A stretch of DNA of 19,657 nucleotides. It comes from an uncultured archaeon. Lineage in GTDB: Archaea > Asgardarchaeota > Thorarchaeia > Thorarchaeales > Thorarchaeaceae. A program made the translations under genes and the position numbers. The notes under the pieces are model-generated. The model worked only from the letters and a program-made list of their open reading frames with translations. It had not been told where the DNA came from and did not search any database. Location: NCBI GenBank assembly GCA_964590575.1, contig CAZPWM010000059.1, positions 1 through 19,657 on the forward strand. Direction: 5' to 3'. This document shows, one piece after another, positions 3,241 through 19,657 of the stretch; position 1 is the stretch's first letter; every line of letters starts with the position of its first letter.

Positions 3241-5460
3241 TCATGTTTCAATTGCGTTCAGGGGTTTTGGAATCCATATTCTGAACTCTGCACCCTGCGT
3301 GTGATCCCCGATGACTCTGTCGTGGACCTCGATAGTACCGTTATACTTCTCAACAATATAATGTGCAGTGTGAAGCCCCAGTCCCCCAAACCTTCGTGAT
3401 GTGTCGAAGAGACTAGTTTTCACTGGGTCAGGAATCCCTTTTCCATCGTCTGCTATCGATACAGTATAACCAGCTTTATCCTCCTTAAGTACAACCCACA
3501 CTTTCTTCTCATCATTAGGATTATGTTCGATAGCATTCATCATAATATTTGAGAGGAGTAACTCAAGAAAATCGTCAGCTTCGATTATTACATCCCTGAT
3601 AGAATATGAGGTTTCAAAGGTTATCGATCCAGAACTCTTTGATAAAGCCTTGATTGTGAGTTCAATAGCCTCATCGAGTTTCCTCTCTCTAGTTGGAACT
3701 GAGAGCAGCTGTTCAGTCGCTTTAGCCTCTTCGATAATTCTTGAACACCGCCTTACAGCATCGCCAATCACTTTCATGAAAGAATCCTTGTTTGACTCAT
3801 CTATCGCTGATTTCATCAGGGCGGCACTATTGAGGATTACTTGGAGTTGTTGAGTCAAATCATGACCCATAAGATCCAAATAAAGAAGTGCGCGGTCCTT
3901 TGCAACCCGAAGTTCTCGTTCGCTTTCACGTCTATCTGTAATATCCACAATCACGGTCTGAACTGCTGATGTTCCCCCATACTCAACACGACTTGTAAAG
4001 CTCTCCACCCAACGGATTTCTCCAGTTTTTCGGATGAATCTATACTCGTATTGAGGCGGGATAGGTCTTCCTTTAATCTTATCTTCCATTCTTTTCTGAA
4101 GATCTGTTCTATCGTCTGGATGAACAAGATCCCAGACATCACTGGCTGTCATTTCAGAAAGTTCATCATTAGAGTATCCAACAAGGTCCCTGAAAGCTGG
4201 ATTGTAATAGAGAAGTGAATCCGTAGTTAGAATAGTGATTCCTTGAACTGATTGTTCTGCAAGGCTTCGATACTTTTCCTCAGATTTGATGAGGTTGTCC
4301 TCAGCAACACGTTTCTCAGTTATGTCTTGATATGTTCCAAGAACCCCAATCACATTGTTATCTTCATCATGCAATGAAACAATATTAATCTCAATCCACG
4401 CTTCTCGGTCATCTGCTTGATGTTGAGGAGCGATGATGTTCATCTGCGGTTGGTTTGTTCTGATTACTTCTTGATCAAGTGCTCGGAACAATTCAGCTTC
4501 TACCTCATTCCATGCTAGGTCAAAGTCTGTCTTTCCCACGATGTTGTCTGGATTACCTACACCTGCAACTAGTGCGAAGTTTTCATTGCACCCAAGATAA
4601 ACCGAGTCAAGGTCTTTCCAATATACGTATTGAGGGATTGTGTTCATGACTGTTAGAAGCATCTCTTGGGATGAACGTAGTTTTATTTCAGTCAACTTTG
4701 CCTCGGTAATGTCAATGACTATAACTTGGAATGCTTTGGCTCCTTCATATTCAATATCTCCTGAGAAAGCTTGAACCCATCTAATAGAACCGTCTCTTCG
4801 TATGAATCGATATTCATATGGCATTGGTATCTTGATTCCCGCCCTCCTATCGCTAGCTAACTTAAGCAAGTAACTTTTGTCTTCAGGATGAATAAGATTC
4901 CAACCCTCCTCAGATGGCATAGTAAGTATTTCATCCACTGTATACCCAACTAGAAAGGCAAAGGCTGGATTAACATACACATACCTATCATCCTGGATAA
5001 TTGTTAAACCTTGGATTGACTGTTCTGCAAGTAATTTGTACTTCTTTTCAGCTTCAATTCGTGCAGATATATCAGTGATTACGGCGAACGAGCCCTGATG
5101 AACCCCATCTTCACTAATGAGCGGAGTACCTGATACAATTGTTGGTATTTTCTTTCCTGTCCGTGTTGTCCATTCAAGCTCATATTGAGATGAGAGACCC
5201 TTGGTTCTTTTTCGGACATTATTCTCCAACAAAAACAGGTTTTCATCATCAAGAAAAGTAGTAAGTGGTTTCCCAATCATCCAATCCAAAGGATAATCAA
5301 GCAGATCACTGAATCTTTGGTTTGCATAGGTGAGAATACCGTTGCTATCAATAACACCAAATGCGTCATTCATTGCATCCAAAAGTGCTCTAAACCTATG
5401 TGCCTCTGTAATCGACTCTGAATCCTCATTATGAATAGTTTCGATTTTTTCATCTGGCAA
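3241..5460 (-). CDS. Soluble multi-PAS (4 PAS/PAC) sensor histidine kinase
   Basis: TTG start after GAGGA. Four PAS/PAC units each ending in DI(S/T). H-box 'LDLMGHDL', N-box 'NIMMNAIEHN', G1 'DDGKGI', G2 'GGLGL'. No TM segments. Confidence 0.93.
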   Translation of the reverse strand: MPDEKIETIHNEDSESITEAHRFRALLDAMNDAFGVIDSNGILTYANQRFSDLLDYPLDWMIGKPLTTFLDDENLFLLENNVRKRTKGLSSQYELEWTTRTGKKIPTIVSGTPLISEDGVHQGSFAVITDISARIEAEKKYKLLAEQSIQGLTIIQDDRYVYVNPAFAFLVGYTVDEILTMPSEEGWNLIHPEDKSYLLKLASDRRAGIKIPMPYEYRFIRRDGSIRWVQAFSGDIEYEGAKAFQVIVIDITEAKLTEIKLRSSQEMLLTVMNTIPQYVYWKDLDSVYLGCNENFALVAGVGNPDNIVGKTDFDLAWNEVEAELFRALDQEVIRTNQPQMNIIAPQHQADDREAWIEINIVSLHDEDNNVIGVLGTYQDITEKRVAEDNLIKSEEKYRSLAEQSVQGITILTTDSLLYYNPAFRDLVGYSNDELSEMTASDVWDLVHPDDRTDLQKRMEDKIKGRPIPPQYEYRFIRKTGEIRWVESFTSRVEYGGTSAVQTVIVDITDRRESERELRVAKDRALLYLDLMGHDLTQQLQVILNSAALMKSAIDESNKDSFMKVIGDAVRRCSRIIEEAKATEQLLSVPTRERKLDEAIELTIKALSKSSGSITFETSYSIRDVIIEADDFLELLLSNIMMNAIEHNPNDEKKVWVVLKEDKAGYTVSIADDGKGIPDPVKTSLFDTSRRFGGLGLHTAHYIVEKYNGTIEVHDRVIGDHTQGAEFRIWIPKPLNAIET

Positions 5461-5633
5461 CTAGGAAATTCCTCTTTCTGAATGAAATGCTTCGCTGAGC
5501 TATGTTTCTTGACCAGAAAACCATAATTTTGTATATTACTATCTTGTGTGTTTGTTATCCGCGAATCGGATATGGTTCATCTGTCGTAGTAAAGGTTTTA
5601 CTAAGAAAGAATGTGCCTCACTGAGTGGAGTTA

Positions 5634-7892
5634 ATGTCTGGTATCCAACAGGAGCGTCTTGCGAAACGTGTAGCGTTCTACAGTGTCATTGCATTGTTAG
5701 CTGCATTTGCATGGTTCATAATTGGATTACCTGCTTGGCAGACATATCACACCGATATTGCCTTTCAGACATTCATAGCATTCTCGACAATAGCGTGTAT
5801 TGCTATCTCCTTGCTAGCCAATAGAGAACACCCTACACCATTTCTTGCGATGGTTCAAGCAGCTCTGTTCTATTCTTCAGCCATGCATATAGGATTTACA
5901 ATTGATAACATATATTCACATGATACTTGGATACTGCATAGGTCCACATTGAATCTATTCAATGACTTACTGGAGTTAGCTCTCTTAAGTTGCTTATTCT
6001 TCATTTCAGTATGGTCAAATGTGAGATGCAAGAAAATTTCTAGTAGAAGGCTCTACTCAATCGCACTCGTATTAGGAACTTCCCTTTTGCTAATTTATGC
6101 TGTTCTCTCAGATAGAATAATCCAAATAATCCCTGAGTCACTGATGCATGGTTTGGGTGTCATTGTCTTTGGAATTGTAATAATCATACTAGGTGCAACA
6201 ATATATCTTGTATTCCAATCTTCAAAAGAAGACCTTCCATACCAGCCCATCGCGTTCATTGTGTTCTGTGTTTTATTAGCTGTGGCTGCAGTTCCTCTGA
6301 TTATTCCTCTTTTTCAGTCATCAGAAATCTGGACACTTTCAGTAACCTTTCAGTCTGTTGCATTCTTCGTTCTTTATTTGTCCCTAGCTATTCCATATCT
6401 TCAGGATGTCGGGATGAAATCAAAAAGTGCAACCATCTTCGCATCTGGCTTTTCAGCTCTTTTCCTTATTCCATTTGTTGTTACTCTTATTGTGGAAACA
6501 TGGATATCTGAATTTTACGATCCAGACTTGAGCGTTTACATTATCATACATCTGGGTGCCGCATCTCTGTCAGTTGTTATGGCGATCATGACTTATGGGC
6601 ATGCGAAAACGAGAGGAATGAGGAATCTCTATCCCCTCATTCTTCTGTTTGCTTCATGGACTGTTGTAGATATTTTTCAGGTAGTGATGTCTCAGCTACC
6701 ATTACCATATGAGGGTGAATCAATGGTTCCGTACATCACTGGGAGTATAGTATCACTAATCGCACTGTATCTAGCAATTCGTTGGACGATGGGTAAACCC
6801 CCATTGCATTTACCTCGTCCTGAGTTATGGCCTCTTCTTGGATTCTCGATTCAGGCTGGTCTTGTCATTATATCCGAATTGATTCAAACTGCTCTCACGG
6901 GAGCAGTTCCCACTCTGCTCCATAGCCCTCTAGGGAACTCTGTCCTTCTTATTATCAATTTCTTTGCAATGTTTGAGTTCACGTATCTTATCGTCTATCT
7001 ATCACGTAAATCAGGAGGCGGTCTTACAGTGGAAGTTCTGCTCACCGGTTTCCTCGCCCTTTGGATAGTACCCAATATTCTCAAAGCGAATTACCTGGAT
7101 TGGACAGCGGGGTGGTATTCTGCTGAGCTAATTCTGCTTGTTGCCTTATTATGTGGTCCAGCTGTCTTGGGTATGCTCTACCTTGGGGAAATGCGGAGTG
7201 CAGAGAGCTCCCATCAAAGAGCACGGGTCTATTCTGATCTTCTAGTTCATGATATTTCCAATTACCATCAAGCCATCCTCATTTCATTGGGACTCCTTGA
7301 AGTCAACGGGATTCAACCTGGTATAAGGGAGCAAGTCCTCAGAGATGCTCAAATTGAGTTGCATCGGGCTGATGAGCTCATTCGCAATGTGCGGCAATTA
7401 GGGATGTCTGAAGAGATTATTCATCAGATGCTTGACCGTCTTGACCTGGTCCAGTGTATTAGGACATCTTTTGACAATGCTATTCCAACTATCCACCGGC
7501 AAAATATTGAATTCAGCATTAATCGAAACCGTGGAGAATGCTATGTTCAGGGTCACCCCTTGATTGAGGGAATATTCACGAACCTTTTCCGAAACTCAAT
7601 CCAGTATTCACCTGACAAGAAACGTATCGAAGTAGAACTTAAATTAAGTAGAAATCAGGAAGGCGCTGTTTGGATCGTTAGAGTCATCGACTATGGTCAA
7701 GGAATTGAACCTGAAAAGAAAGTCAATCTCTTCAATCGTTTCATGAGCGGGGCAAAAGGAACAGGTCTTGGTCTTTCTGTAGCAAAAACACTCACTGAGA
7801 TTTTTGGCGGGACAATCGCAGTAGAAGATCGTGTCCCAGGTGATTACACGAAGGGCTCTGTCTTTATTGTCACACTTCCCGCTGCTCAATAA
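5634..7892 (+). CDS. Membrane-bound sensor histidine kinase with a very large (~16 TM) input domain
   Basis: ATG at 5634 after GAGTGGAG (alternative GTG at 5625). About 520 hydrophobic residues, then H-box 'DLLVHDISN', 'NLFRNSIQYS', 'IDYGQGI', 'GTGLGLS'. Confidence 0.92.
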   Translation: MSGIQQERLAKRVAFYSVIALLAAFAWFIIGLPAWQTYHTDIAFQTFIAFSTIACIAISLLANREHPTPFLAMVQAALFYSSAMHIGFTIDNIYSHDTWILHRSTLNLFNDLLELALLSCLFFISVWSNVRCKKISSRRLYSIALVLGTSLLLIYAVLSDRIIQIIPESLMHGLGVIVFGIVIIILGATIYLVFQSSKEDLPYQPIAFIVFCVLLAVAAVPLIIPLFQSSEIWTLSVTFQSVAFFVLYLSLAIPYLQDVGMKSKSATIFASGFSALFLIPFVVTLIVETWISEFYDPDLSVYIIIHLGAASLSVVMAIMTYGHAKTRGMRNLYPLILLFASWTVVDIFQVVMSQLPLPYEGESMVPYITGSIVSLIALYLAIRWTMGKPPLHLPRPELWPLLGFSIQAGLVIISELIQTALTGAVPTLLHSPLGNSVLLIINFFAMFEFTYLIVYLSRKSGGGLTVEVLLTGFLALWIVPNILKANYLDWTAGWYSAELILLVALLCGPAVLGMLYLGEMRSAESSHQRARVYSDLLVHDISNYHQAILISLGLLEVNGIQPGIREQVLRDAQIELHRADELIRNVRQLGMSEEIIHQMLDRLDLVQCIRTSFDNAIPTIHRQNIEFSINRNRGECYVQGHPLIEGIFTNLFRNSIQYSPDKKRIEVELKLSRNQEGAVWIVRVIDYGQGIEPEKKVNLFNRFMSGAKGTGLGLSVAKTLTEIFGGTIAVEDRVPGDYTKGSVFIVTLPAAQ

Positions 7893-8035: not shown

Positions 8036-8530
8036 CTAGTGAGTTATTTCTGTTGATGAAACTGCTTCTAATGAGTTCATTCTTGTCTGGATGGTTTTTT
8101 TAATCTCATTAAGCATTGGAGCTAGATTATCTTCTCGACCGCTTCTTAAATCCTCGATAGAATGAATGTCTTTCATCATTGCTCCAAGTCTATCTAGGAG
8201 GCTCACGACTCCAAGATTGAAGATATCTCCGAAACTACCATCAATAGAATACAGAACACGTTTTCTACCCCGACCAGTCTGGTCATAATCTCGTCTTCCT
8301 TCAATTACCCCCAACGCTTCAAGTTGAGAGATTATCAATCCTGCATTTGCACGGGAGTAACCTGTGACTTTACAGATATCATCAGAACTCATGCGATTAC
8401 CAGTTTCATAACTTTCGATAAAGAGTGCTGCTATGACCGGTCCTGCATTTGTGGATAGACCGATCCATTTTGCCACTTTCTCAAATAGTCTTGTGATAGG
8501 TCCTTTGAGAAAACCATTGTCATTTCCCAT
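8036..8530 (-). CDS. Winged-helix transcriptional regulator (GbsR/MarR-like)
   Basis: 'KWIGLS..AGPVIAALF', HTH 'MSSDDICKVTGYSRANAGLIISQLEALGVI', wing 'GRGRKRVLY', C-terminal coiled coil. AGGTG RBS upstream. Confidence 0.8.
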   Translation of the reverse strand: MGNDNGFLKGPITRLFEKVAKWIGLSTNAGPVIAALFIESYETGNRMSSDDICKVTGYSRANAGLIISQLEALGVIEGRRDYDQTGRGRKRVLYSIDGSFGDIFNLGVVSLLDRLGAMMKDIHSIEDLRSGREDNLAPMLNEIKKTIQTRMNSLEAVSSTEITH

Positions 8531-8641: not shown

Positions 8642-9973
8642 TCACATGTCTCTTTCGCGAGTGAGAACAAAGAGTACATCTTCTCCAGAGTATTTTCCCG
8701 TCACAACTCTTGTACTAGCAAATTTCTTGATTCCATTCATTGCCATAAGAGGTAACTCAAAACTAATGACCGTTCCTTCTACAGCCCCTTGCAAAGCTGC
8801 GCTAATCCTCTTTTGATCATCCTTCTCATAGAAATCCAGAATGCTTTTTCCCTTAAGAGAAGTTTCGCCTGTTCCTAATTTTGCACTCGCTGTATCGTTT
8901 GCATGGAGGACAGTTCCAGCTGTATCAATGACGAAGAACAGGTCTTGAAAGGAATCGAACATCTTAATCATTTCTGACTGTGACCGAATGATTGACTGTT
9001 GTGCTTTTACTCTGGCCATGTAGGCTCCAACTTGAATTGCAATCGCTTCCAGAGTATATCTGTCGTTGTTAGGTATCTCATCATGTGAGTGAGACCCAAG
9101 ACTGAGTATTGCAACGGTTTTTCCTTCAAAGAGAACTGGAACAATCGCTACTGCTGTTAGGTCTTCATAATCACTGAGTCCTTTTAGTGAATCATTTATC
9201 TCTGATCTTGAAACATAGAGCGGTTCTGTTACTTCAAGGCTCTTCTCTTGACCTAGAATACTCTTGAGAAACTGAGATGATATTCCTTGGCTTGTTGAAA
9301 GATCAAGCTGTCCAGTTTCATCATCCATGAGGAAAATTGCTGCCGTATCAACTCCTTCGAGATGCACTACTGCCTTCAGAATCCTATCCAACGCATCAAT
9401 CAGATTTTCTGTTTCACAAAGTATGTTTCCCAAATCTCTTTGTAGGAGTAATGAATCTTCGATTTTTTCTCTCTCAACAATCTCCTGATAGAGGCGATCG
9501 TTGGTTTCCTTTAATTCCGCAGTTCTCTCTTCAACTCGTTTTTCTAGGTCCGCCAGCGCGGTTTCAAGAGCTTCTTCTTGCCGTCTTGATTCCACCTCAG
9601 ATATTATCTTACTTGCTAGCTGCGAGAATAGTTCTCGAAACTCTTCAGTTCCTTTCTTGAGATAATAGTCTGCACCGAGATTCAATGCTCTAATAGCGAC
9701 AGATTCTTGACTTCGCCCTGTGAATATGATAAATGGTATGTGAGGGTTGAACTCTCTGACCCATTCTAGAAGCTCTAATCCTGTCATACTATCATGTCCC
9801 AGAAAGTGATCACATACTATTGCATCAAACTGCTCTTCTTCAATCAATCGTAGAGCTTCTTGATCAGTGGTTGCGGACACAAGATGAATTCGTTCATCCT
9901 CTCGTGTTAGAAACTTACCCGCAAGAAATAGTAGGTCCTCGTCATCATCAATTACTAGGACCCGTATCTGCAC
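8642..9973 (-). CDS. Response regulator REC-coiled coil-GAF-PAS, no DNA-binding or kinase output
   Basis: REC residues are intact: 'VIDDD', 'VCDH' (phospho-Asp), 'FTG', 'GADYYLKK'. S-helix 'LEKRVEERTAELKETN', GAF 'AVAIVPVLFEGKTVAILSL', C-terminal PAS. GTG at 9973 preferred as start (GAGGTGGAG upstream); ATG at 9994 is possible. Confidence 0.9.
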   Translation of the reverse strand: MQIRVLVIDDDEDLLFLAGKFLTREDERIHLVSATTDQEALRLIEEEQFDAIVCDHFLGHDSMTGLELLEWVREFNPHIPFIIFTGRSQESVAIRALNLGADYYLKKGTEEFRELFSQLASKIISEVESRRQEEALETALADLEKRVEERTAELKETNDRLYQEIVEREKIEDSLLLQRDLGNILCETENLIDALDRILKAVVHLEGVDTAAIFLMDDETGQLDLSTSQGISSQFLKSILGQEKSLEVTEPLYVSRSEINDSLKGLSDYEDLTAVAIVPVLFEGKTVAILSLGSHSHDEIPNNDRYTLEAIAIQVGAYMARVKAQQSIIRSQSEMIKMFDSFQDLFFVIDTAGTVLHANDTASAKLGTGETSLKGKSILDFYEKDDQKRISAALQGAVEGTVISFELPLMAMNGIKKFASTRVVTGKYSGEDVLFVLTRERDM

Positions 9974-10096
9974 TTCCACTCCACCTCTTCTCATTGGATT
10001 CTCTTATCCAACTAAATGATTCTCTCGATTGGTCCTAGGTTTGGCGTTTAATAGATATTATATTTGTCATCAAGCAATTCTCGTGAACTCAATAGG

Positions 10097-10136: not shown

Positions 10137-12374
10137 TCAGCTTGTTTGCTGTTTCGGTTTTATGATGAAGATATATACTATGATTACAATGCCTACTACA
10201 GCAATAGCTACAACTCCAATAAATAGAGGCAGCAAATCTGGTGGAGGAGGTTCGTGGTATTCTGGTACAGTGTAACCTAGCTGTGTACTCTGAGATTCTT
10301 GTCCAAATCCGTCTAGTGCAGATATATAGAAATCAACTTCAGTGGCTTCAGGTTGCCCTGGTATTGTAGCGTTGAATCCATTTCCCGTGTCGACCATCTC
10401 AACCTCATTCCAAACGCTTCCGTTAATCCGATAGAAGAGTGACACGGATACAAGACTTGGATCGTAGACCTGTGCTGACACATTCACATCCCACCCAGCT
10501 ATAGGTGGTGTCAAGTGAATGGAAGCAATCTCAGGTGCAGGATCATGATAGAGGTAGACGTCGTCGAAGAGAACTTCTATCTGTCCACCGACATCGGCTT
10601 CTCCATACAAAATAATACTATACAGAGTTGTGTTTGGTGCAACACCAAATGCAGATTCATAATCATTGTATAGATTTCGTTGAAAATTGATCCAGACCCC
10701 CTCAGAATTATGCTCTGGCACAATAATGAATTCATCGAATCCATTTTCAGTTGGAACTGCTGAGTTGTTCGCTATAATATAGGCTAGTGATTCTTCTTCA
10801 AAATAGGCTTCAATGTACAAAATATTACTAGCATCCACAGACCAATCCTCAATGCGCCAGAATAGGTCCAACCAAATGTCAGTACTATTATTGATTTGAT
10901 AATTCTCAAGATACTGGTATCCCTCAAAATACTCTCCATCTGCTAGTGCAAGCTTTGCTGCACGAGCGCCTGAGTATGCTATATCTGTCACTGTATAATT
11001 GGGTGCTGGATTATCGCTAGGGTTCCAAGTCCAAATTTCACCACCCACCTGCTGCTGGTCCTCATAACCCATGTCACTCAATGCTGCAGTGACATGAGAC
11101 GCGTCGTCGAAAAGAATCGTGATACGTGCGCCAGGATCTCGTGAGTAAACTTCAACTTTAACATCATCAATAATGATGAAATCGGTTGTATTCACTGAGA
11201 TTACATCTTCCCAGATACTCCTATCAAATGTATGCCACTGACCAGTCACATTGAATCCTGTAGCATTAATCTCTTGTCCCTCGTAAGTTTGGTAGGGAAC
11301 TGCGGTTCCCATATAGAACAGCGCATAGGTGAGATAGAAATCTGCATCTTCAGTTCCGTTCGAGCAGTGGACCCTGAGATACGCATATGTGTGAACCGAG
11401 GCTGACACCACTTCATCAATTCGCCACTGAAGACTGAGTCTGTCTGGGTTCAAGGAAGATGCTCGAATATTATTATTATTAGTAAATTGAGCATTGCTCT
11501 CATTTCCATTCGATGTTACAGTCGCGTTTAGACTGAAGTCACCCTCTTGGCGTACTGAACTTTTACTAATCAAAGCAGGGTCGTTGTTCTGATTTGTTAG
11601 CCAAACACTCCCTGTTTCGAAATTACCATTCGAAATACTACCCCCAATGAAAGTAGTACCATTAACAAGCCACAAATCATCAAAATAGGCTCGACAGTAT
11701 GAAGTCGTAAAACTTCGAAGTTCAATTTCGAATGTTTTGAATTGGCCAGTTGGGTACGTGCCAAATGCTTCGAAATAATCATCTGTCATATTTCTATTAA
11801 AAATATTCCAAGTCTGCGTTGGACCTGAGATTTGAAAATAACAATAATTTGTGCTATTGGTAATAACACTATTTTGGCTTTCAAAGTAATAATGTAGAAT
11901 CCTTTCTCCAGCTGTATCAAACTTCACCAAAAGGCGAAGGTAGTTGTTATCAGTTGCACTGGGCAATTCATCAATAAACCAGTCAAATTTGAGGGTTAGA
12001 TTAGTCGGATTACTCCACCAAGAATATGAACCCCTCTTCAATACAGCCTCAGAGTAATCTTGAGGTGTTAATGCTCGTGCCTGAAGGACGAAGGAACGAG
12101 CCCCTTCATTTACATAAGCAGGATTGCTTTGAATATATGCATAATGCTCTTTGGTGAATTGAGATCCGATACCTTCTGGACTTGTGTCATCATACCATAG
12201 CTCAAATCCAGGATTTGGAAATTGGTTCGTTTTCCATTCGACACGATTGGGATCAGTTGCAGCGTCATTAAAAATCGCGCTTTTGTTTGGACTCATATCA
12301 GCAATTGGAGTGACCAATGGTATAAGCCATAATAGTACGCAGAAAATTCCTAGTAATTTTAGGTGGTTCTTCAT
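10137..12374 (-). CDS. Large secreted, C-terminally membrane-anchored surface glycoprotein: 3 tandem CBM/jelly-roll-like repeats plus an Ig-like domain
   Basis: ATG at 12374 after GGAGGA. Signal peptide 'MKNHLKLLGIFCVLLWLIPLV'. Three internal repeats, many N-x-S/T sequons, Pro linker, C-terminal TM and KPK tail. Confidence 0.8.
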   Translation of the reverse strand: MKNHLKLLGIFCVLLWLIPLVTPIADMSPNKSAIFNDAATDPNRVEWKTNQFPNPGFELWYDDTSPEGIGSQFTKEHYAYIQSNPAYVNEGARSFVLQARALTPQDYSEAVLKRGSYSWWSNPTNLTLKFDWFIDELPSATDNNYLRLLVKFDTAGERILHYYFESQNSVITNSTNYCYFQISGPTQTWNIFNRNMTDDYFEAFGTYPTGQFKTFEIELRSFTTSYCRAYFDDLWLVNGTTFIGGSISNGNFETGSVWLTNQNNDPALISKSSVRQEGDFSLNATVTSNGNESNAQFTNNNNIRASSLNPDRLSLQWRIDEVVSASVHTYAYLRVHCSNGTEDADFYLTYALFYMGTAVPYQTYEGQEINATGFNVTGQWHTFDRSIWEDVISVNTTDFIIIDDVKVEVYSRDPGARITILFDDASHVTAALSDMGYEDQQQVGGEIWTWNPSDNPAPNYTVTDIAYSGARAAKLALADGEYFEGYQYLENYQINNSTDIWLDLFWRIEDWSVDASNILYIEAYFEEESLAYIIANNSAVPTENGFDEFIIVPEHNSEGVWINFQRNLYNDYESAFGVAPNTTLYSIILYGEADVGGQIEVLFDDVYLYHDPAPEIASIHLTPPIAGWDVNVSAQVYDPSLVSVSLFYRINGSVWNEVEMVDTGNGFNATIPGQPEATEVDFYISALDGFGQESQSTQLGYTVPEYHEPPPPDLLPLFIGVVAIAVVGIVIIVYIFIIKPKQQTS

Positions 12375-12477
12375 GATTTTTCCTCCTAGTGAGGTCTTAC
12401 CATGCTGGTGAATCAACTGCTTATTTCTCTTTGCCGCCTAAGTAAAACTACCATCTACTCACTAGCTATTGTTTGAG

Positions 12478-12522: not shown

Positions 12523-14013
12523 CTATCTCTTACGGAAGATTACTGCAGCTACTACAATGCCTAGTACTAATCCACCAACTCCGATCACAGCGACTGTCAA
12601 GATATCGAAGCCTGGGGGTGGTAGTTCTGTTGTAGTTGTTGTTGTCGATGTTGTTGTTGTTGTTGATGTTGTTGGTGCGAATCCACCTGGAACATATGGC
12701 TCACCATTCCAGACAGAGGCAACTGGGGATGCTACTGTAGTTCGATTGAGTGTTTGAACCAATTCCGCAATTACGAGATTCTCTGTTTCAGATCCAGAAC
12801 GGGTGTCATTCACAGCTTTTGCGATATACATCTCTGCAAGCCCTTGATGGTCCTCCGGTCTCAAGTATGTTTCTCCCTTCGGACAGTTTATGATTACACC
12901 ACTTTCCAGATAGTTGATCATCAAGTCAGTATCAAGGTCTGCAATCTCATTTGTTACGTCCACCAAGAATTGTGCTGTGGCAAACGCACTTGCAGTGAAA
13001 AGTTCCGGAACTCTATATTGAAGACCATATTGACCGTTTGGCTTGATGTTTCTGGTGACATGTTGCGCTACCATCCAATCATTTACTGCATTGTTTGGTA
13101 GTTCATAGCCATATACACAGAGCCCAGTAGAATTAATGTAGGTAGCAGGAGGCGTCAAACTCGCTTCAATGGCGTTCATGGAAAGGATATCAATACATGC
13201 TCCAGCAATTTCCATATTTGCTGCAAGACTGTATGTTGTCATATCATTGTACAGATATGAGAAGTCAAGAGCCCAAATGATGAACAGATACTCGATATCG
13301 TTCACCAAATCAGCTGCTTTGAGAGCATCAATCTCTTGAGAGAAATCTGTATCAAAGAGGTTAGCATACACGGAACTGATTACGACTCCTCCCTTCTCTT
13401 CAATTACATTTGTCATTGAAGCAACGCCATCATATCCAAAGGAATAATCAGCGGCGAGAAATGCAAATTTGGTATACCCGAGTGTGTCCATCGCGTATGT
13501 AACACCTGCATAGGCATCTTGCCAGTTGTTTCTAGCGATACGGAAAATGTACGGATTAAAGCCCGATTCAGTTATCGAAGAAGCAGCAGCTGGAGTTATG
13601 AAAAATATCTTCTCATTATCTTCAGCAATAGGTGCCAATGCTGCAGCAACCGCACTAGAAGTTGCTCCCACGAGAATGTCAATTTCATCCGTTTCAATAG
13701 CTGTTACTGCCTGGGACGCTGCATAGGTCACATCACCCTTAGTGTCATAATAATGAAGTTCATAGGGTCGACCTGCTTCGGTCTTATTCTCATTGTCATA
13801 TCCCATCATCGTAGTTGCATATATCATTCCCAACTCGAAGCCTTGTTTCGTCCATGGTCCATATGAAATCAGACCAGCTGTTTCAGGAGTGAAAATTCCA
13901 ATCTTAATTGGAGTTGTCTGTGCAGCAACTGGTTTAACCATGAAACAAGGTAGAAAGATGGATGCGATCATTAGCAACGAAAGAGATAGAGATATTATTC
14001 TCATTTTTTTCAT
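12523..14013 (-). CDS. ABC transporter substrate-binding protein (LivK/type-1 periplasmic binding fold) with Thr-rich linker and C-terminal TM anchor
   Basis: GGAGGA RBS and signal peptide. Motifs 'IKIGI', 'YDTKGD', 'DILVGATSSAVAAA', 'YIFR', 'LAADYSFG', 'PKGETYLRPEDHQ'. Poly-Thr linker, PGF, TM helix, RKR. Confidence 0.92.
   Translation of the reverse strand: MKKMRIISLSLSLLMIASIFLPCFMVKPVAAQTTPIKIGIFTPETAGLISYGPWTKQGFELGMIYATTMMGYDNENKTEAGRPYELHYYDTKGDVTYAASQAVTAIETDEIDILVGATSSAVAAALAPIAEDNEKIFFITPAAASSITESGFNPYIFRIARNNWQDAYAGVTYAMDTLGYTKFAFLAADYSFGYDGVASMTNVIEEKGGVVISSVYANLFDTDFSQEIDALKAADLVNDIEYLFIIWALDFSYLYNDMTTYSLAANMEIAGACIDILSMNAIEASLTPPATYINSTGLCVYGYELPNNAVNDWMVAQHVTRNIKPNGQYGLQYRVPELFTASAFATAQFLVDVTNEIADLDTDLMINYLESGVIINCPKGETYLRPEDHQGLAEMYIAKAVNDTRSGSETENLVIAELVQTLNRTTVASPVASVWNGEPYVPGGFAPTTSTTTTTSTTTTTTELPPPGFDILTVAVIGVGGLVLGIVVAAVIFRKR
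12628..12672 (-). repeat. Low-complexity (ACA)n-rich stretch encoding the poly-Thr linker
   Basis: Plus strand tgttgtagttgttgttgtcgatgttgttgttgttgttgatgttgt encodes TTSTTTTTSTTTTTT. Confidence 0.85.
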
Positions 14014-14152: not shown

Positions 14153-14959
14153 CTAAAGTGTGTTTTTCTGGGATTGTTTGTGTAAGAATCCTAGAACTAT
14201 GCTGTTGAACTCTTCAGGTTTTTCAAATGTTACAGCATGACCCGAATCACGAACAATAACCATTTCTGAATTCAGTAAGCTGTCGTGAATCAAACTCGAA
14301 TACGGATGGGTTGGTTTTAAGATGTCCTTCTCACCGGAAATCACACAAATGGGTATTTTGATCTGTTTTAGCTGATCTGTGATATTTAGCTTGAGAAACG
14401 CATCCATCAATCTTACAAGTGGAGGATAATCTAGTGCAGCATAACGAACCTTAGCTTGTTCCAAAATAGCAGTATTTTCTCGAATGAAGGGTTCTGCAAA
14501 ATTCAATGGTACAGTAGCGTGATAAAAAAGGTCAGGATCACCGAGCTCGCACGCATATCTCCATAGTTGAGCCATCTCAAGGAGCAAGGTGCCCACGTAA
14601 GAAACGGCACTACACACAACAAGGCTTCTCAGCATTTCAGGATACTTCAGTGCAAAGACTAAGCCTAATTCAGCACCATAGCTTATTCCTACATGATGAG
14701 CTTTGGAAATGCCAAGTTCTTCAAGAAGTGCCTTTTGATCATCAGCATGGACATCAAATGAATAGGGTTCTTCTGGCTTTTCGCTCTGCCCCTGTCCACG
14801 CATATCGTACAGAATGACTTGATACTCTTTAGAAAAAACAGGAACTTGATTGATCCATCCTAGTGTATTCGAAAAAACACCATTACCAAAGATGACTGGT
14901 TCTCCATCACCATGTATTTCGTAATAGATATCTATTCCATTTACGTTGCTGACGGGCAT
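14153..14959 (-). CDS. Alpha/beta-fold hydrolase (enol-lactonase/esterase-like)
   Basis: 'YDMRGQGQS', nucleophile elbow GISYG, acid 'GEKD', His 'SGHAVTFEKP'. ATG lies 2 nt after the stop of the ligase gene. Confidence 0.92.
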   Translation of the reverse strand: MPVSNVNGIDIYYEIHGDGEPVIFGNGVFSNTLGWINQVPVFSKEYQVILYDMRGQGQSEKPEEPYSFDVHADDQKALLEELGISKAHHVGISYGAELGLVFALKYPEMLRSLVVCSAVSYVGTLLLEMAQLWRYACELGDPDLFYHATVPLNFAEPFIRENTAILEQAKVRYAALDYPPLVRLMDAFLKLNITDQLKQIKIPICVISGEKDILKPTHPYSSLIHDSLLNSEMVIVRDSGHAVTFEKPEEFNSIVLGFLHKQSQKNTL

Positions 14960-14961
14960 GA

Positions 14962-16512
14962 CTACTTCTCCTCTTGTCCAAAATCTTGTCGCAATTTCCG
15001 TTTCAGGATTTTCCCTGCTCCAGAGATATATGGAGTAAAACTATCTGTAAAGCGTACTGATTTTGGAATCTTGAATTTTGCCAGTTTTCCAGCGCAAAAG
15101 TCGATTATCTCTTCTTCTGATGCTGTTTGACCTGATTTCAAAATAACAATAGCACGTCCCACTTCTCCCCATTTGGGATCGGGAACTCCGATCACTTGGA
15201 CTTGGTCAATCTTTGGATGCTCTTCGAGGATTTTCTCAATCTCTCTTGGATAGACATTCTCACCTCCGGAGATGAACATGTCCTTGACCCTATCCACTAC
15301 ATAGTAGTACCCTTCATTATCAAAATACACCATATCTCCAGTAGCAAACCATCCACCATCATCGAGAAGAGTCTTGTTCAATTCCGGCCTGTTCCAGTAA
15401 CCAATAGTCACTGTGGGTCCTTTAAACATCAGTTCGCCAACCTCATTCGCATCGCAATCCTTTCCAGTTTCAGGATCAACCACTTTTGCATCGATAAAGA
15501 AGTTTGGAGTACCAATACTTCCACTCTTTCGTTCCGCATCCCATGGATCAAGAGCGAAACACCCAGGACCAACTTCGGTCATTCCAAAGCCCTGCTTGAA
15601 TTTGACTCCATGAGTTTCTCTGTATTTCCTGATGACGTCTAACGGCAAAGGCTCACCACCAGAGGTCAGGAATCGAACATTACTGAAATCTATGGACTTA
15701 AAGTCAGGATGGTTCATGAGCATACGATACTGTGTAGGAACGGCAAAGAAAAAGTTGGGATTCTCCTTGTTGATTACTCGCACAAGAGTGTCAAGATCCC
15801 ATCTCTTCATCTGAATTACCTTGCCTCCCAAAATGAAGAGTGGAATTGCATACACATACAATCCCCCAACATGAAAGAGAGGTAGATGATTTATGTAGAC
15901 ATCACCTGGGAGAATGTCTCTAATAGTACTGAGCGTATTGAACGCCACATGTCTGTAGGTTATCATTGCCCCCTTTGGTAGTCCAGTTGTGCCGCCGGTA
16001 AATACAATCCCCATTGGATCTTCATAAGTAAGGGATACTGGTTGAGGAGATGTGGAGGGCGAGTTGTTAATTGCATCTTCATAAATGACTGATCCTTCTA
16101 CCTTTGCATCTTTTCTGTTCATTGACACCCATTGATTAACAGTGACTTCTTGTTTAAGTTCTAATGCAACACTTGATAATTCAGAATCGTAGAATAACAC
16201 CGATGGAGAAAGATCGTTGATCAATTCTGCTAATTCTCGGGCTACTAAACGCCAATTTAGAGGGCTGAAAATGCCACCACACTTTTGACACCCGAAAAAT
16301 ATTTCCCAGTACTCAAGACTATTTTGTGCGAGTATGCAGAGTCGGTTCCCTTTCTGAAACCCAATTTCTTGTTGAAGGAAATTCGCCACTCTATTTGCAC
16401 GTTTATTGAATGCTCTGTAGGTATACCGTTTCCCGGTTTCTACATCAACAAGAGCCTCAGCCTCTGGAGAGAAGACATCCCTCTTGGATAGATAATCAAA
16501 TTGATTGACCAT
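14962..16512 (-). CDS. Acyl-CoA synthetase / AMP-binding ligase (FadD13/MenE-like class I adenylating enzyme)
   Basis: P-loop 'FTGGTTGLPKG', 'LPLFHVGGL', 'GFGMTE', 'WFATGD', 'VDRVKDMFISGGENVYPREIE', 'GKILK'. GAGGAG RBS. Confidence 0.95.
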   Translation of the reverse strand: MVNQFDYLSKRDVFSPEAEALVDVETGKRYTYRAFNKRANRVANFLQQEIGFQKGNRLCILAQNSLEYWEIFFGCQKCGGIFSPLNWRLVARELAELINDLSPSVLFYDSELSSVALELKQEVTVNQWVSMNRKDAKVEGSVIYEDAINNSPSTSPQPVSLTYEDPMGIVFTGGTTGLPKGAMITYRHVAFNTLSTIRDILPGDVYINHLPLFHVGGLYVYAIPLFILGGKVIQMKRWDLDTLVRVINKENPNFFFAVPTQYRMLMNHPDFKSIDFSNVRFLTSGGEPLPLDVIRKYRETHGVKFKQGFGMTEVGPGCFALDPWDAERKSGSIGTPNFFIDAKVVDPETGKDCDANEVGELMFKGPTVTIGYWNRPELNKTLLDDGGWFATGDMVYFDNEGYYYVVDRVKDMFISGGENVYPREIEKILEEHPKIDQVQVIGVPDPKWGEVGRAIVILKSGQTASEEEIIDFCAGKLAKFKIPKSVRFTDSFTPYISGAGKILKRKLRQDFGQEEK

Positions 16513-16574
16513 TGTTGTCTCCTCGATATGAAATTATGTCATTTGAAATCAGTCATAACCGAAATAAAAATCCC

Positions 16575-17585
16575 TTACCACCATTTCAAAACAGCTGCTG
16601 CCATGTTGAAACCGCCTCCTGAAGAACAGAGTGCAATGTTTTCGCCATTCCCTTCTCCAGGCGGTGGAAGTTTTCCTTGGTCAATAGCATCATACATTGC
16701 TAGTGCAATACAAGCTGAACCGGTGTACCCCCATTTATCCATGACATTATGAGTCTTCTCAAGCGGCAAGCCTAGTTCCTTCATAACCGCCTCAATTGTA
16801 CGTAAGTTAACCTGAGTAAAAAAGATCCAGTCAATATCCTCGATGGTCATATTCGCTTTTTCTATGCACTCTCTTGTTAGGATTGGCCAATGCTGGAGAT
16901 TCGTGTCTGCAGGAAATCGCTTTCGGAAAGATAAATGATGTCTATTATTCTGAATTGCTTCAATTGTGGGTGGTTCTGCTGTTCCTCCCACGAAGACTCC
17001 TAAATGGTCATGAAAGGACCCATCAGCAATTAACTTTGAAGCAATGAATCCCTCTCTGTCATCACTAGCTTGCAGAATCATTGCTCCTGCTGCATCAGCA
17101 AATAATGTACAAGTATAGTGGTCGGTCCAATCCACGAATTTAGTCATGCCATATGCACCAATTACTAAAACAGAATTAATGTCTGGATCTGTTCTGATAT
17201 ATCGAGTCGCAATGTCTAGAGAAGTAACCAAACCTGCGCAAGCGCAATTGACATCAAATGTGCCAGCATTTTTAGCACCAATTTTATGTTGAACCACTAC
17301 TGAGGTTGCTGGAGAAATATAGTCTGGTGTGTCGGTACTCAAAATGATCAGGTCGAGATCGTTGGCCTTCAATCCTGCATTTTCCAACGCTTCACGACTT
17401 GCATTTGCTGCAAGGTCAGATGTCACTTCATCTTCGGCCATGACATGACGCTGTCTGATACCTACATTCTTTATCAACCAATCAGCTGTCCCAGGGCGGT
17501 TAAGCATCTGTTCAATGTCTTCATTTGTCAACATCTTCTCGGGAATGTATATCCCCAAACCTGTAATCACAGCTGAGCGAACCAT
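16575..17585 (-). CDS. 3-oxoacyl-ACP synthase III (FabH)-like thiolase-fold enzyme with a non-canonical active site
   Basis: 'GIRQRH', 'TDTPDYISPATS', 'FDVNCACAG' (Cys), 'LFADAAGA', 'SSGGG'. The His position reads 'FTQVN' and the Asn position reads 'GYTGSA'. ATG at 17585 after GAGGT. Confidence 0.92.
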   Translation of the reverse strand: MVRSAVITGLGIYIPEKMLTNEDIEQMLNRPGTADWLIKNVGIRQRHVMAEDEVTSDLAANASREALENAGLKANDLDLIILSTDTPDYISPATSVVVQHKIGAKNAGTFDVNCACAGLVTSLDIATRYIRTDPDINSVLVIGAYGMTKFVDWTDHYTCTLFADAAGAMILQASDDREGFIASKLIADGSFHDHLGVFVGGTAEPPTIEAIQNNRHHLSFRKRFPADTNLQHWPILTRECIEKANMTIEDIDWIFFTQVNLRTIEAVMKELGLPLEKTHNVMDKWGYTGSACIALAMYDAIDQGKLPPPGEGNGENIALCSSGGGFNMAAAVLKWW

Positions 17586-17667
17586 ATTCAACCTCTCATG
17601 AGTTTTCTCCTCAGATCCAACACTCTCTTTCCTGCCAAATCATCTTCTTATTTGGCTTAGGAATCAG

Positions 17668-18486
17668 TCATCCCTTTTCTACTTCATCTATAAAATTCAT
17701 TACCTCATTATTGAACTCCTCATACTTTTCGATAATGACAAAATGCGATGCATCCTTTATAATCTTCAACTTCGAATTGGGTATGCGCTCAGCTAGCAGC
17801 TCTCCATTCTTCGTCGGTACTGCACGATCATTAGCTCCGTGGAGAATAAGTGTTGGCGCAGTTATCTTATTCAATTCTGATTCGGAATTAAATTCACTTG
17901 TTGCGGAGCTCTGATGCACCTGAGCAAATAACGGTGTGGGGTGCTTTTCTGCCCATACATCTATCTGCTCTAGTAAGGATCTATTGTCTTTGAGGAATTC
18001 AGGACTGAAGGTAGCTCTATAACGCATCTCCCTTGCTTGCTCTACTGAGATTGTTTCTGTAGGCAGGGCAATTAGTAAAGCCATTGTTTTATCATCCATG
18101 GGGATATAATTATGTCCTCCAAAGTGAGTAGATGAAAGAATCAAACTTCGAACTTTTTCAGGATAGGAAATGGCAATCTGCTGAGCAATCAATCCCCCCA
18201 TTGAGATTCCTAAAATATGTGCGTCCTTGATGTTCAACGCTTCCATCAGACCAACCGTATCGGCAGCCATCATCTCTATTCTGTATGGATAGTCTGGTTT
18301 GGAACTTTTTCCAGCTCCACGATTATCAAACACTACACATCTGTATTTTTCCTTAAATGTGGGTACTTGCCGAAACCAAATCCAGCGGTAGCTAGCCCAT
18401 CCTCCAATGAGCACAAGAGGCGGAGCGTCATGTGCTCCATGAATCTCATAATAGATGTCAATGTCTCCTACAGTCGCGTATGGCAA
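17668..18486 (-). CDS. Alpha/beta-fold hydrolase (second paralogue)
   Basis: TTG start 1 nt after the permease stop, giving an N-terminus that matches the other hydrolase. 'FDNRGAGKS', GISMGG, 'HGAND', 'ASHFVIIE'. Confidence 0.92.
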   Translation of the reverse strand: MPYATVGDIDIYYEIHGAHDAPPLVLIGGWASYRWIWFRQVPTFKEKYRCVVFDNRGAGKSSKPDYPYRIEMMAADTVGLMEALNIKDAHILGISMGGLIAQQIAISYPEKVRSLILSSTHFGGHNYIPMDDKTMALLIALPTETISVEQAREMRYRATFSPEFLKDNRSLLEQIDVWAEKHPTPLFAQVHQSSATSEFNSESELNKITAPTLILHGANDRAVPTKNGELLAERIPNSKLKIIKDASHFVIIEKYEEFNNEVMNFIDEVEKG

Positions 18487-18487
18487 T

Positions 18488-19657
18488 TCAATCACTTCCT
18501 TCTGATGTTCTTGATGCAAGACTTCCTAATCTCGATCTCAACCTTCTACCGAAAGTTTTCAATCGTGATGTAATCCCCCATCTGAAGATGTATATTAGGC
18601 TTAAACCAATCACGCCTAGATATCCAAATATCGCGATAATAATAGGGAGAAATCTAATGTCTTCCGTAAAGAGTAGGAAAACGCCCATTGCACCTAGTAG
18701 CCCAAATACCCAGTAGTCCGCATCCTTAAGTCCAAACTCAATTTTTCTTATATTTAGGCGTTGTAGTTTTCCTTTCAGAGAATCGAATTTCCTACCAATC
18801 GAACCCACGATACCAAGAGGCAAGAATAGGACAATGATTATGTACATCACTCCAAGTCCGACCAACCAAAACCTTCCATCCAAGTGTAGCACTGATGTTA
18901 TGAAATCCACTAGATTTAACTCAGAATACGCCACTAATCCCGTTCCTAGCAATGGACCAAATAAGGTACCTATTCCTCCGATGATGGTGAATAACATTGC
19001 ATCAATTGTCCCATTAACTCCCAGAACTTTGTCAGGACCTATAGTTCTTATAAAAACCGTATATAATGCTCCCGAAAGCCCAGCAATTGCCCCACTTATA
19101 ACAAGCACAACCGTCTTTGCACGAAAACTGTTGTAGCCCAAAGCTTCAGCCCGTTCTTCATTCTGAGCCACAGCAGTAATCATTCTCCCAAAGGGAGAAA
19201 CAATTAGTCGTCTTACGAAAACATAGATTATCACGAGACAGGTCAATACTAGATAGTATTGCACTGGAATAGTATAGTAAAAAGTGGAGGAATCTTCAAT
19301 CCATAGTAAAACCATTTGGATTATGTTTCCTCCTACTGCTACAACCAAACCAAAAAGAGAAATTACAATGATGATTGCTGCTAATAATTTGGTAGGTAGT
19401 AATTTAGGTGGTTTTCCGTCGCCGGTGTCTGTATTGTCCTCAGAGTATCGAAGAGGGTCACTGATCGATTCACCTCGTTCAATCCAAAAGAAGAGAATCA
19501 TTAGCAGAAAGGCAAAAAACACCAATACAGATCCGAGAATATTTGTTCCTAATATTAATAGGACAACCATATAGGCAACCATAACTGGAGTGACCAAGAA
19601 TAGACCAAGAGTTTCTGTCCGTTTTTTCAAGTAAAGGATGACCATTCCAATAAAAGC
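18488..19657 (-). CDS. livM: Branched-chain-amino-acid-type ABC transporter permease (LivM-like), 5'-truncated by the window edge
   Basis: 'SPFGRMITAVAQNEERAEALGYN', 'ISGAIAGLSGALY', 'IIGGIGTLFGPLLG', 'VLFLPLGIVG'. Frame is open to base 19657. Confidence 0.9.
   Translation of the reverse strand, partial: AFIGMVILYLKKRTETLGLFLVTPVMVAYMVVLLILGTNILGSVLVFFAFLLMILFFWIERGESISDPLRYSEDNTDTGDGKPPKLLPTKLLAAIIIVISLFGLVVAVGGNIIQMVLLWIEDSSTFYYTIPVQYYLVLTCLVIIYVFVRRLIVSPFGRMITAVAQNEERAEALGYNSFRAKTVVLVISGAIAGLSGALYTVFIRTIGPDKVLGVNGTIDAMLFTIIGGIGTLFGPLLGTGLVAYSELNLVDFITSVLHLDGRFWLVGLGVMYIIIVLFLPLGIVGSIGRKFDSLKGKLQRLNIRKIEFGLKDADYWVFGLLGAMGVFLLFTEDIRFLPIIIAIFGYLGVIGLSLIYIFRWGITSRLKTFGRRLRSRLGSLASRTSEGSD

Follow-up and report, generated by a model that had tools for sequence, protein, structure and literature searches.

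The window analysed here, 19,657 nucleotides long, is an entire contig (C59; CAZPWM010000059.1 of assembly GCA_964590575.1) from an uncultured archaeon of the Thorarchaeaceae, and it ends inside a LivM permease gene. Its minus strand carries KS-A, a gene for a protein with the fold of FabH, the β-ketoacyl-acyl carrier protein (ACP) synthase III (KAS III), in which the nucleophilic Cys is kept and Thr and Tyr occupy the positions of the FabH His and Asn. From comparative sequence analysis we conclude that KS-A is very probably an active, non-decarboxylating acyl-Cys enzyme that stands outside fatty-acid synthesis, and that it represents an undescribed KAS III subfamily encoded in an operon for acid uptake and activation with coenzyme A (CoA).

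The KS-A active site and its clade

The stop-free translation of the KS-A open reading frame (ORF; 16575-17591, minus strand) is 338 aa long counted from TTG. A second start, ATG at 17583-17585, lies two codons after the TTG and is preceded by a Shine-Dalgarno-like GAGAGGT motif; because of this motif and because orthologues are mostly 336 aa long, the ATG is the likelier start, giving an end coordinate of 17585. Residue numbers are nevertheless counted from the TTG at 17591. KS-A contains both Pfam domains ACP_syn_III and ACP_syn_III_C (84 bits each; thiolase fold), and solved FabH structures matched it in HMMER searches with E values from 4e-56 to 1e-45. An AlphaFold2 model built from 37 clade sequences had a predicted local distance difference test score (pLDDT) of 96.2 and a predicted template modelling score (pTM) of 0.94. 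Its nearest folds in the PDB were canonical FabH, BioZ and PqsD (TM score 0.86-0.90, 24-36% identity), Foldseek finding no PDB structure nearer than these, and its ESM Atlas matches were generic KAS III clusters only.

The catalytic positions are as follows.

16575..17585, minus strand: KS-A, FabH-fold (KAS III-like) gene of the Cys/Thr/Tyr clade, 336 aa from ATG
17238-17240, minus strand: Cys118, nucleophile (E. coli FabH C112), codon TGC, second Cys of DVNCACAG
16815-16817, minus strand: Thr259, at E. coli FabH His244, codon ACT
16725-16727, minus strand: Tyr289, at E. coli FabH Asn274, codon TAC

Against solved FabHs, HMMER laid 'ftQvNlR' on 'phQaNrR', 'GyTgsA' on 'GnTsaA' and 'lfaDaaGA' on 'lfgDgaGA', and MAFFT with E. 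coli K-12 FabH placed C118, T259 and Y289 on C112, H244 and N274. Both methods agree with the first-pass annotation of this DNA, which had read a retained Cys, His replaced by Thr and Asn replaced by Tyr at these same codons. Its further reading of LFADAAGA is correct for the window, but the motif is partly specific to Thorarchaeota, other clade members having LFADGAGA or FYGDGAGA. In E. coli FabH, His244 and Asn274 are required for malonyl decarboxylation. Nor has the pair simply moved, a possibility that the annotation had raised: the alignment holds no conserved His elsewhere in the clade, so a His/Asn pair elsewhere in the active site is absent.

The replacement is not confined to this genome. 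We scanned prokaryotes with each species represented by one genome and obtained 79 loci. Thr was present in each of the 55 rows whose score was not below 268 bits, and Tyr in 52 of them (the other 3 end before that column), whereas the rows with the canonical His/Asn (n=21) all scored at most 231 bits. Since the rows split by score in this way, the Thr/Tyr swap is not a chance event. The suggestion that TQ.N/GYTG marks a conserved clade is thereby upheld, and on these alignments Cys/Thr/Tyr together with GYxGSAC is a clade signature rather than a private mutation. The full set of clade features (C118, T259, Y289, D87, N231 and C294, in the motifs 'TDxPD', 'TQxN' and 'GYxGSAC') is present in the window protein. 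Among the best 150 representatives of 50% identity clusters drawn from 1.84 billion proteins, 21 had a full Cys/Thr/Tyr set and 106 had Cys/His/Asn, with several further Cys/Thr/Tyr fragments in the same 150. Carriers belong to Thorarchaeota, Heimdall/Hodarchaeota, Chloroflexota (53-57% identity to KS-A), Ignavibacteriota, Actinomycetota, Bacillota, and Alpha- and Betaproteobacteria, a cultured one being Paucimonas lemoignei DSM 7445 (Proteobacteria).

We built a maximum-likelihood tree of 79 rows rooted with PRK06840 paralogues, for which the query was kept with 5 Thorarchaeota loci and the canonical rows were thinned to 28 drawn at random. In this tree 45 of the 46 Cys/Thr/Tyr rows fell into one group, with a support of 90, without a star, in the Shimodaira-Hasegawa-like approximate likelihood-ratio test (SH-aLRT); its sister was the canonical clade (99, starred). 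The Asgard sequences made a single clade (100, starred), sister (93) to a Chloroflexota-dominated clade (100, starred) and nested within wider bacterial diversity, a topology that fits a transfer from bacteria to Asgard archaea.

For the pocket we set 68 rows of the clade, 30 of them Asgard and 38 from elsewhere, beside 119 canonical rows; every row was 300-380 aa long. Cys118 was present in every row of both sets, and six further positions separated them.

17331-17333, minus strand: Asp87 (E. coli T81), Asp in 67/68 clade rows; 0 Asp and 1 Glu among 119 canonical rows
16899-16901, minus strand: Asn231 (E. coli A216), 67/68 clade versus 0/119 canonical
16710-16712, minus strand: Cys294 (E. coli S279), in GYxGSAC, 68/68 clade versus 1/119 canonical
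17151-17153, minus strand: Tyr147 (E. coli D140), 64/68 clade versus 0/119 canonical, in which D or E fills 117/119
Trp235 (E. coli L220), 66/68 clade versus 0/119 canonical
Pro227 (E. coli V212), 66/68 clade versus 0/119 canonical

Lys or Arg filled the column of E. coli G209 in 54 of the clade rows. F87 is the residue with which the partner subunit closes the acyl pocket; its column held Ser/Thr in 67 clade rows, and the Thr that M. tuberculosis FabH has there opens a long-chain channel. From the HQxN motif Gln260 is kept, as is Asn262 in most clade rows. In alignment A1 (37 sequences) the invariant columns include D87, C118, N231, T259, Q260, Y289, C294, G325 and G327. T81, V212, A216 and L220 appear as lining of the E. 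coli FabH active-site pocket in the residue lists of docking studies (PMC6897290 table 2; PMC8457745). Homology together with these lists would place the co-varying positions in the pocket. The first-pass annotation had missed the gain of invariant Asn231 and Asp87, with which the pocket appears rebuilt rather than degraded or simply stripped. The list of co-varying positions, and the correspondence of Asp87 to 3-hydroxy-3-methylglutaryl-CoA synthase (HMG-CoA synthase, HMGCS) described below, are new in the present analysis.

These data also bear on whether KS-A is functional. Its ratio of nonsynonymous to synonymous substitution rates (dN/dS) against four Thorarchaeota orthologues was 0.04-0.07, values that are rough since dS exceeds 1, and two more pairs were saturated; KS-A is under strong purifying selection. 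The His/Asn loss being fixed across a deep clade under such selection, we share the earlier view that the gene is not a pseudogene, a candidate rejected on the intact ORF, the clade-wide conservation and the purifying selection. Loss of the canonical triad might instead have left a catalytically dead scaffold or regulatory subunit. This we regard as barely credible: dN/dS is low, Cys118 is present in 68/68 rows, and the new polar residues that surround it are fixed. In dead paralogues, PqsB among them, the Cys is lost.

Asp87 and the genes of fatty-acid synthesis

Three methods paired Asp87 with the Glu of 'GSES' in the HMG-CoA synthase of the same genome: BLASTP (E 1e-8), profile-profile alignment with hhalign (98% probability) and MAFFT L-INS-i. 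That enzyme, an archaeal synthase of the 6esq type, is encoded at L003:847-1884. Counted on the alignment, its 'GSES' Glu falls on residue 79, and its Cys on residue 111, of the S. aureus enzyme (1xpk), whose triad is numbered Glu79/Cys111/His233. KS-A itself scored far below the cut-offs of both HMGCS models (PRK04262, 74.6 bits against 244; TIGR00748, 46.2 against 353). In the Cys-His-Glu triad of HMGCS, as set out in a 2026 review (PMC13412983), the conserved Glu takes the α-proton from the acetyl-Cys intermediate.

The acid also appears to change places between adjacent strand ends from family to family. In canonical FabH, Asp or Glu stands at E. coli position 140 while position 81 is neutral; in KS-A and in KS-B, a second FabH-like protein of this genome, 140 is Tyr and 81 is Asp or Glu. 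HMGCS carries acids at both positions.

We then asked what the genome (3.4 Mb, 91% complete) encodes for fatty-acid synthesis. It yielded no match to the PP-binding (ACP) domain and none to FabD (Acyl_transf_1), and for FabF/B the ketoacyl-synt model gave weak, thiolase-type matches only. KS-A fell below the cut-off of the TIGR00747 fabH model (238 bits against 292.1) and above that of the broad PRK09352 subfamily model (268.3 against 249). By inference, the missing ACP and FabD matches and the failed fabH cut-off support the view, put forward by the first-pass annotation, that KS-A does not start fatty-acid synthesis and is probably ACP-independent. Canonical FabH was considered and rejected as an identity, KS-A having Thr/Tyr in place of His/Asn and the genome giving no ACP or FabD match. 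The evidence says that the label 'ketoacyl-ACP synthase III', which hundreds of clade genes carry in databases, is wrong for the Cys/Thr/Tyr clade. On Asgard genes it can be misread as bacterial-type fatty-acid synthesis, a mislabelling that bears on the debate over the origin of eukaryotic membranes. We found no characterised clade member and no study of Asgard KAS III in the open-access literature searched.

Could the enzyme still decarboxylate, with Thr259, Tyr289 and Asn231 replacing His/Asn as an oxyanion hole for the enolate? Hydroxyl donors can stabilise enolates, Gln260 is kept and Asn262 is present in most rows, the PRK09352 cut-off is exceeded, and the genome has a carboxyltransferase gene. 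Thr/Tyr, however, occurs in 0/119 canonical rows, ACP and FabD are undetected, and E. coli FabH depends on the very pair that KS-A lacks. We give this alternative a very slight probability and retain the view that KS-A does not decarboxylate.

The operon and the function proposed for KS-A

KS-A lies in a run of minus-strand genes.

18488..19657, minus strand: LivM-type ATP-binding cassette (ABC) permease, cut by the contig end
17668..18519, minus strand: alpha/beta hydrolase 1, directly upstream of KS-A
14962..16512, minus strand: AMP-forming acyl-CoA ligase (FadD-like), directly downstream of KS-A
14153..14959, minus strand: alpha/beta hydrolase 2, starting 2 nt from the ligase stop
12523..14013, minus strand: Liv-type (Peripla_BP_6) substrate-binding protein

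This arrangement is conserved. At 32 Asgard loci the hydrolase was the upstream neighbour of KS-A in 27 and the ligase its downstream neighbour in 30, the other 2 stopping at a contig end. The full conserved order comprises an opposite-strand ligase, two ABC ATPases, two permeases, the hydrolase, KS-A, the ligase, the second hydrolase and the binding protein. Contig C95 of the same genome (50-4725 of locus L084) starts with two ABC ATPase genes pointing off its end; next, in divergent orientation, come the genes for a ligase, for KS-B and for a MaoC hydratase. An assembly gap divides the cluster between the window and C95, which has its second arm, and this reconstruction across the two contigs is likewise new in the present analysis. 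A check for RNA evidence over 14153-18519 found no source listed. Ser106, Asp231 and His259 of hydrolase 1 were invariant among 16 orthologues, and both hydrolases fitted PcaD-type models best. The ligase fitted FadD-type CoA ligases best, with 8weu and 8wev (fatty-acyl and feruloyl-CoA synthetase, E about 1e-100) as its leading PDB matches; no paper for either code was found in the open-access literature, and we draw no ligase substrate from the match. Instead of a lipobox the binding protein has a membrane anchor of archaeal style: a poly-Thr/Ser linker leads into one C-terminal transmembrane helix. In the PDB it matched 3nnd and 3n0x best; these are unnamed 'possible substrate binding protein' entries for which no paper was found in the same literature, and so they give no hint of the substrate.

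A search for longer fused forms of the clade protein gave three matches. P0272 (624 aa, a single NCBI record) looks like a genuine in-frame fusion of an alpha/beta hydrolase, a linker and a Cys/Thr/Tyr KS in the gene order of the operon, a hint of cooperation between the hydrolase and KS-A. P0273 and P0274 (KS plus ligase) were rejected as fusions: the two look artefactual, by deletion and by frameshift, the C-terminal part with GYxGSAC being missing from one of them and some stretches of the other being scrambled. In Chloroflexota the clade gene has hydrolases and ligases as neighbours, Liv-type importer parts stand beside it at four bacterial loci (L044, L047, L051, L056), and a FabG-like short-chain dehydrogenase/reductase (SDR) and a relative of butyryl-CoA:acetate CoA-transferase occur next to it in bacteria (L047, L048, L051, L075). 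Salvage of polyhydroxyalkanoate (PHA) or 3-hydroxybutyrate oligomers was considered; its hints (weak hydrolase matches to short-chain-length PHA depolymerase models, a 3-hydroxybutyrate dehydrogenase near the Paucimonas copy, and MaoC in the cluster) were too thin for this reading to be adopted.

In the function that we propose, the Liv-type importer would take up an acid, an ester possibly being opened first by an alpha/beta hydrolase, and the adjacent ligase would turn the imported acid into an acyl-CoA, with whose acyl group Cys118 would be loaded. Because the His/Asn pair with which FabH decarboxylates malonyl groups is gone, and because Asp87 occupies the HMGCS base site together with the polar Tyr289, Thr259 and Asn231, we prefer non-decarboxylative making or breaking of C-C bonds, of the thiolase/HMGCS type: Asp87 would move an α-proton, and Tyr289, Thr259 and Asn231 would polarise the carbonyl of the partner. 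That CoA carries the acyl group, what Asp87 does, and which reaction runs in which direction are all inferred. Taken whole, the statement that KS-A is a CoA-dependent acyl-Cys enzyme of thiolase/HMGCS-like C-C chemistry with Asp87 as base is tentative, its chance falling a little short of even. Broader still is the proposal of a new catalytic class in the thiolase superfamily, with a Cys118 acyl-enzyme, Asp87 as base and a Tyr/Thr/Asn network, performing malonyl-free, ACP-free C-C chemistry on imported acids; in this view it would have reached Asgard archaea, importer operon included, from Chloroflexota-like bacteria. This we consider doubtful, with a substantial minority chance of being right.

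The main rival is an acyl-transferring or thioester-hydrolysing enzyme of the CerJ or ChlB3/ChlB6 type, in which the acyl group on Cys118 would pass to O, N, S or water and no C-C chemistry would occur. CerJ is an altered-triad acyltransferase of this fold, and ChlB3 is reportedly another acyltransferase in which the triad of the KAS III fold is altered. Cys118 and the oxyanion-hole glycines are kept (G325 and G327 invariant), the decarboxylation pair is lost and hydrolases flank KS-A, all of which this rival would accommodate. It gives no reason, however, for Asn231 or for an acid, Asp87, that is invariant in the clade and stands at the base site of HMGCS, and the operon has no genes that would supply an acceptor (sugar, ACP or nonribosomal peptide synthetase). 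The known acyltransferases of this fold (CerJ, ChlB3/ChlB6, DpsC) moreover keep the His. We judge acyl transfer or hydrolysis unlikely, yet weighty enough to be kept in view.

The gene content also recalls oleABCD: genes for an AMP-ligase family member and an alpha/beta hydrolase accompany a KAS III-like one, joined in bacteria by an SDR gene, and two KS-like genes each have a ligase of their own. An Ole- or lipstatin-type pathway would join two acyl-CoAs head to head and then proceed through reduction and lactone formation to release. The OleA chains, however, matched only residues 22-144 of KS-A (E about 1e-14, against 1e-56 for FabH), and the His and Asn of OleA are absent. Its trans-acting Glu presumably lies at the column of E. 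coli F87, where KS-A has Ser/Thr93, in keeping with the 67/68 rows given above. The FadD-type fit of the ligase, the PcaD-type fit of the hydrolases and the importer heading the operon likewise point elsewhere. On the partial OleA match, the absent His/Asn and the importer operon this pathway was rejected, and we regard it as very unlikely.

Several observations weigh against the C-C chemistry that we favour. The Arg of the CoA clamp (E. coli R151) was found in 3/68 clade rows versus 113/119 canonical rows, the R36 column is mostly Asn in the clade, and W32 is retained in 43/68 rows; in the window protein W38 is kept at W32, with Asn42 at R36 and His158 at R151. Because the canonical clamp is eroded in this way, CoA may be bound differently, or a donor other than CoA may be used. 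The nearness of Asp87, Asn231 and Tyr289 to Cys118 is itself predicted from homology and docking tables. P0157, a divergent Thr/Tyr representative placed outside the clade in the tree, is without Asp87 and Asn231. In bacteria the clade gene adjoins a thiolase gene at L051 and one of SCPx type at L039 and L045-L047, so a simple thiolase role would be redundant at those loci, and proteobacterial contexts are heterogeneous and without a ligase. Finally, the genome has a full-length Carboxyl_trans gene (contig C67, 8842-10302, 650 bits) despite its undetectable ACP and FabD, and malonyl- or methylmalonyl-CoA is for that reason still conceivable.

We next considered the partner question. The first-pass annotation had suggested that KS-A might be one subunit of a PqsBC-like heterodimer and had proposed a look upstream for a second FabH-like gene. 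The window holds no second KS gene, but one exists in the divergent operon on C95.

L084:3257-4297, contig C95: KS-B, second FabH-like gene, PRK06840 NCBIfam equivalog (414 bits against a cut-off of 315)

KS-B has Glu at the Asp87 column, Tyr at that of Tyr147, an aliphatic residue at His244 and His at Asn274; we found no characterisation of its family. Counting KS-A at no less than 45% identity, we surveyed 301 sampled Asgard genomes, of which 36 had KS-A and 27 of these also a KS-B-like gene, often about 8 kb from KS-A on the opposite strand. The 9 genomes with KS-A and no KS-B-like gene were all at most 84% complete. Obligate pairing as in PqsBC or LstAB would fit this incompleteness, the presence of both genes in four Chloroflexota-type loci and one Hodarchaeota locus, and the acid at E. 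coli 81 and Tyr at 140 that KS-B shares with KS-A. Against it, none of the five bacterial genomes with KS-A gave a PRK06840 match over the cut-off, 64 Asgard genomes had KS-B-like genes alone, and KS-A and KS-B belong to separate, divergent operons that both include a ligase. Because of the bacterial genomes and these 64, KS-A is not an obligate partner of KS-B. We consider such a heterodimer improbable, so that of the earlier suggestion the second gene stands and the obligate pairing is weakened. KS-A in Asgard archaea looks like an add-on to a KS-B module.

The clade represents a natural and deeply conserved swap of the Cys-His-Asn triad for a polar set plus a carboxylate, and could reveal another route by which the thiolase fold handles enolates. 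Its gene also marks a conserved uptake and processing operon common to anaerobic archaea and several bacterial phyla.

The remaining genes of the window lie beyond the binding protein.

10137-12416, minus strand: secreted protein of 759 aa, rich in Asn and Thr, C-terminal membrane anchor, weak DUF3047 match only
8642-9994, minus strand: receiver-GAF-PAS regulator
8036-8530, minus strand: small protein of no Pfam family
5625-7892, plus strand: polytopic membrane histidine kinase
3241-5460, minus strand: multi-PAS histidine kinase

The gene at 10137-12416 sits between the binding protein and the response regulator, and looks like an insertion because the binding-protein gene directly precedes the regulator in L004, L022, L028 and L040. 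In these same Thorarchaeota loci, homologues of the genes at 8036-8530 and 8642-9994 follow the cluster, and the two may for this reason regulate it.

Comparison with known systems

FabH from E. coli (1hn9), N. meningitidis (4ryb) and B. xenovorans (4dfe) is the closest in structure (TM score 0.86-0.90, 28-36% identity), and KS-A shares with it both Pfam domains, the nucleophilic Cys, the Gly-rich oxyanion loop and the Gln of HQxN. It differs by Thr for H244, Tyr for N274, Asp for T81, Tyr for D/E140, Asn for A216, Trp for L220, Cys for S279, Lys/Arg for G209 and Ser/Thr for F87, by loss of R151, by its score below the fabH model cut-off, and by a genome in which the type II fatty-acid synthesis (FAS-II) partner genes for ACP and FabD are undetected. 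KS-B of the PRK06840 family belongs to the same Asgard cluster and likewise has an acid at E. coli 81 and Tyr at 140. Its identity to KS-A is 24-30%, however, and it is far more widespread in Asgard genomes.

PqsC (6esz, 5dwz), a KAS III-fold enzyme, has an incomplete triad and acts on CoA and free-acid substrates; it matched KS-A weakly over residues 91-334 (E 1.6e-11). PqsC keeps the His, and it needs PqsB, unlike the KS-A clade, in which no second KS accompanies the gene in 5/5 bacterial genomes. OleA (3row, 4kti), CerJ, ChlB3/ChlB6 and DpsC, compared here without residue-by-residue alignment, resemble KS-A in belonging to the thiolase superfamily and in doing without malonyl decarboxylation; OleA matches it in the N-terminal part only. 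OleA keeps Cys-His-Asn and receives a trans Glu from the partner subunit.

HMG-CoA synthase is of the same superfamily and is ACP-independent, as KS-A probably is, and KS-A has an acid in the column of the general base Glu79, 31-32 residues before the Cys. Identity between the two is only about 21-23%, and the Glu-Cys-His triad has no full counterpart in KS-A, where Asp stands for Glu, the Cys is kept and Thr259 occupies the His column.

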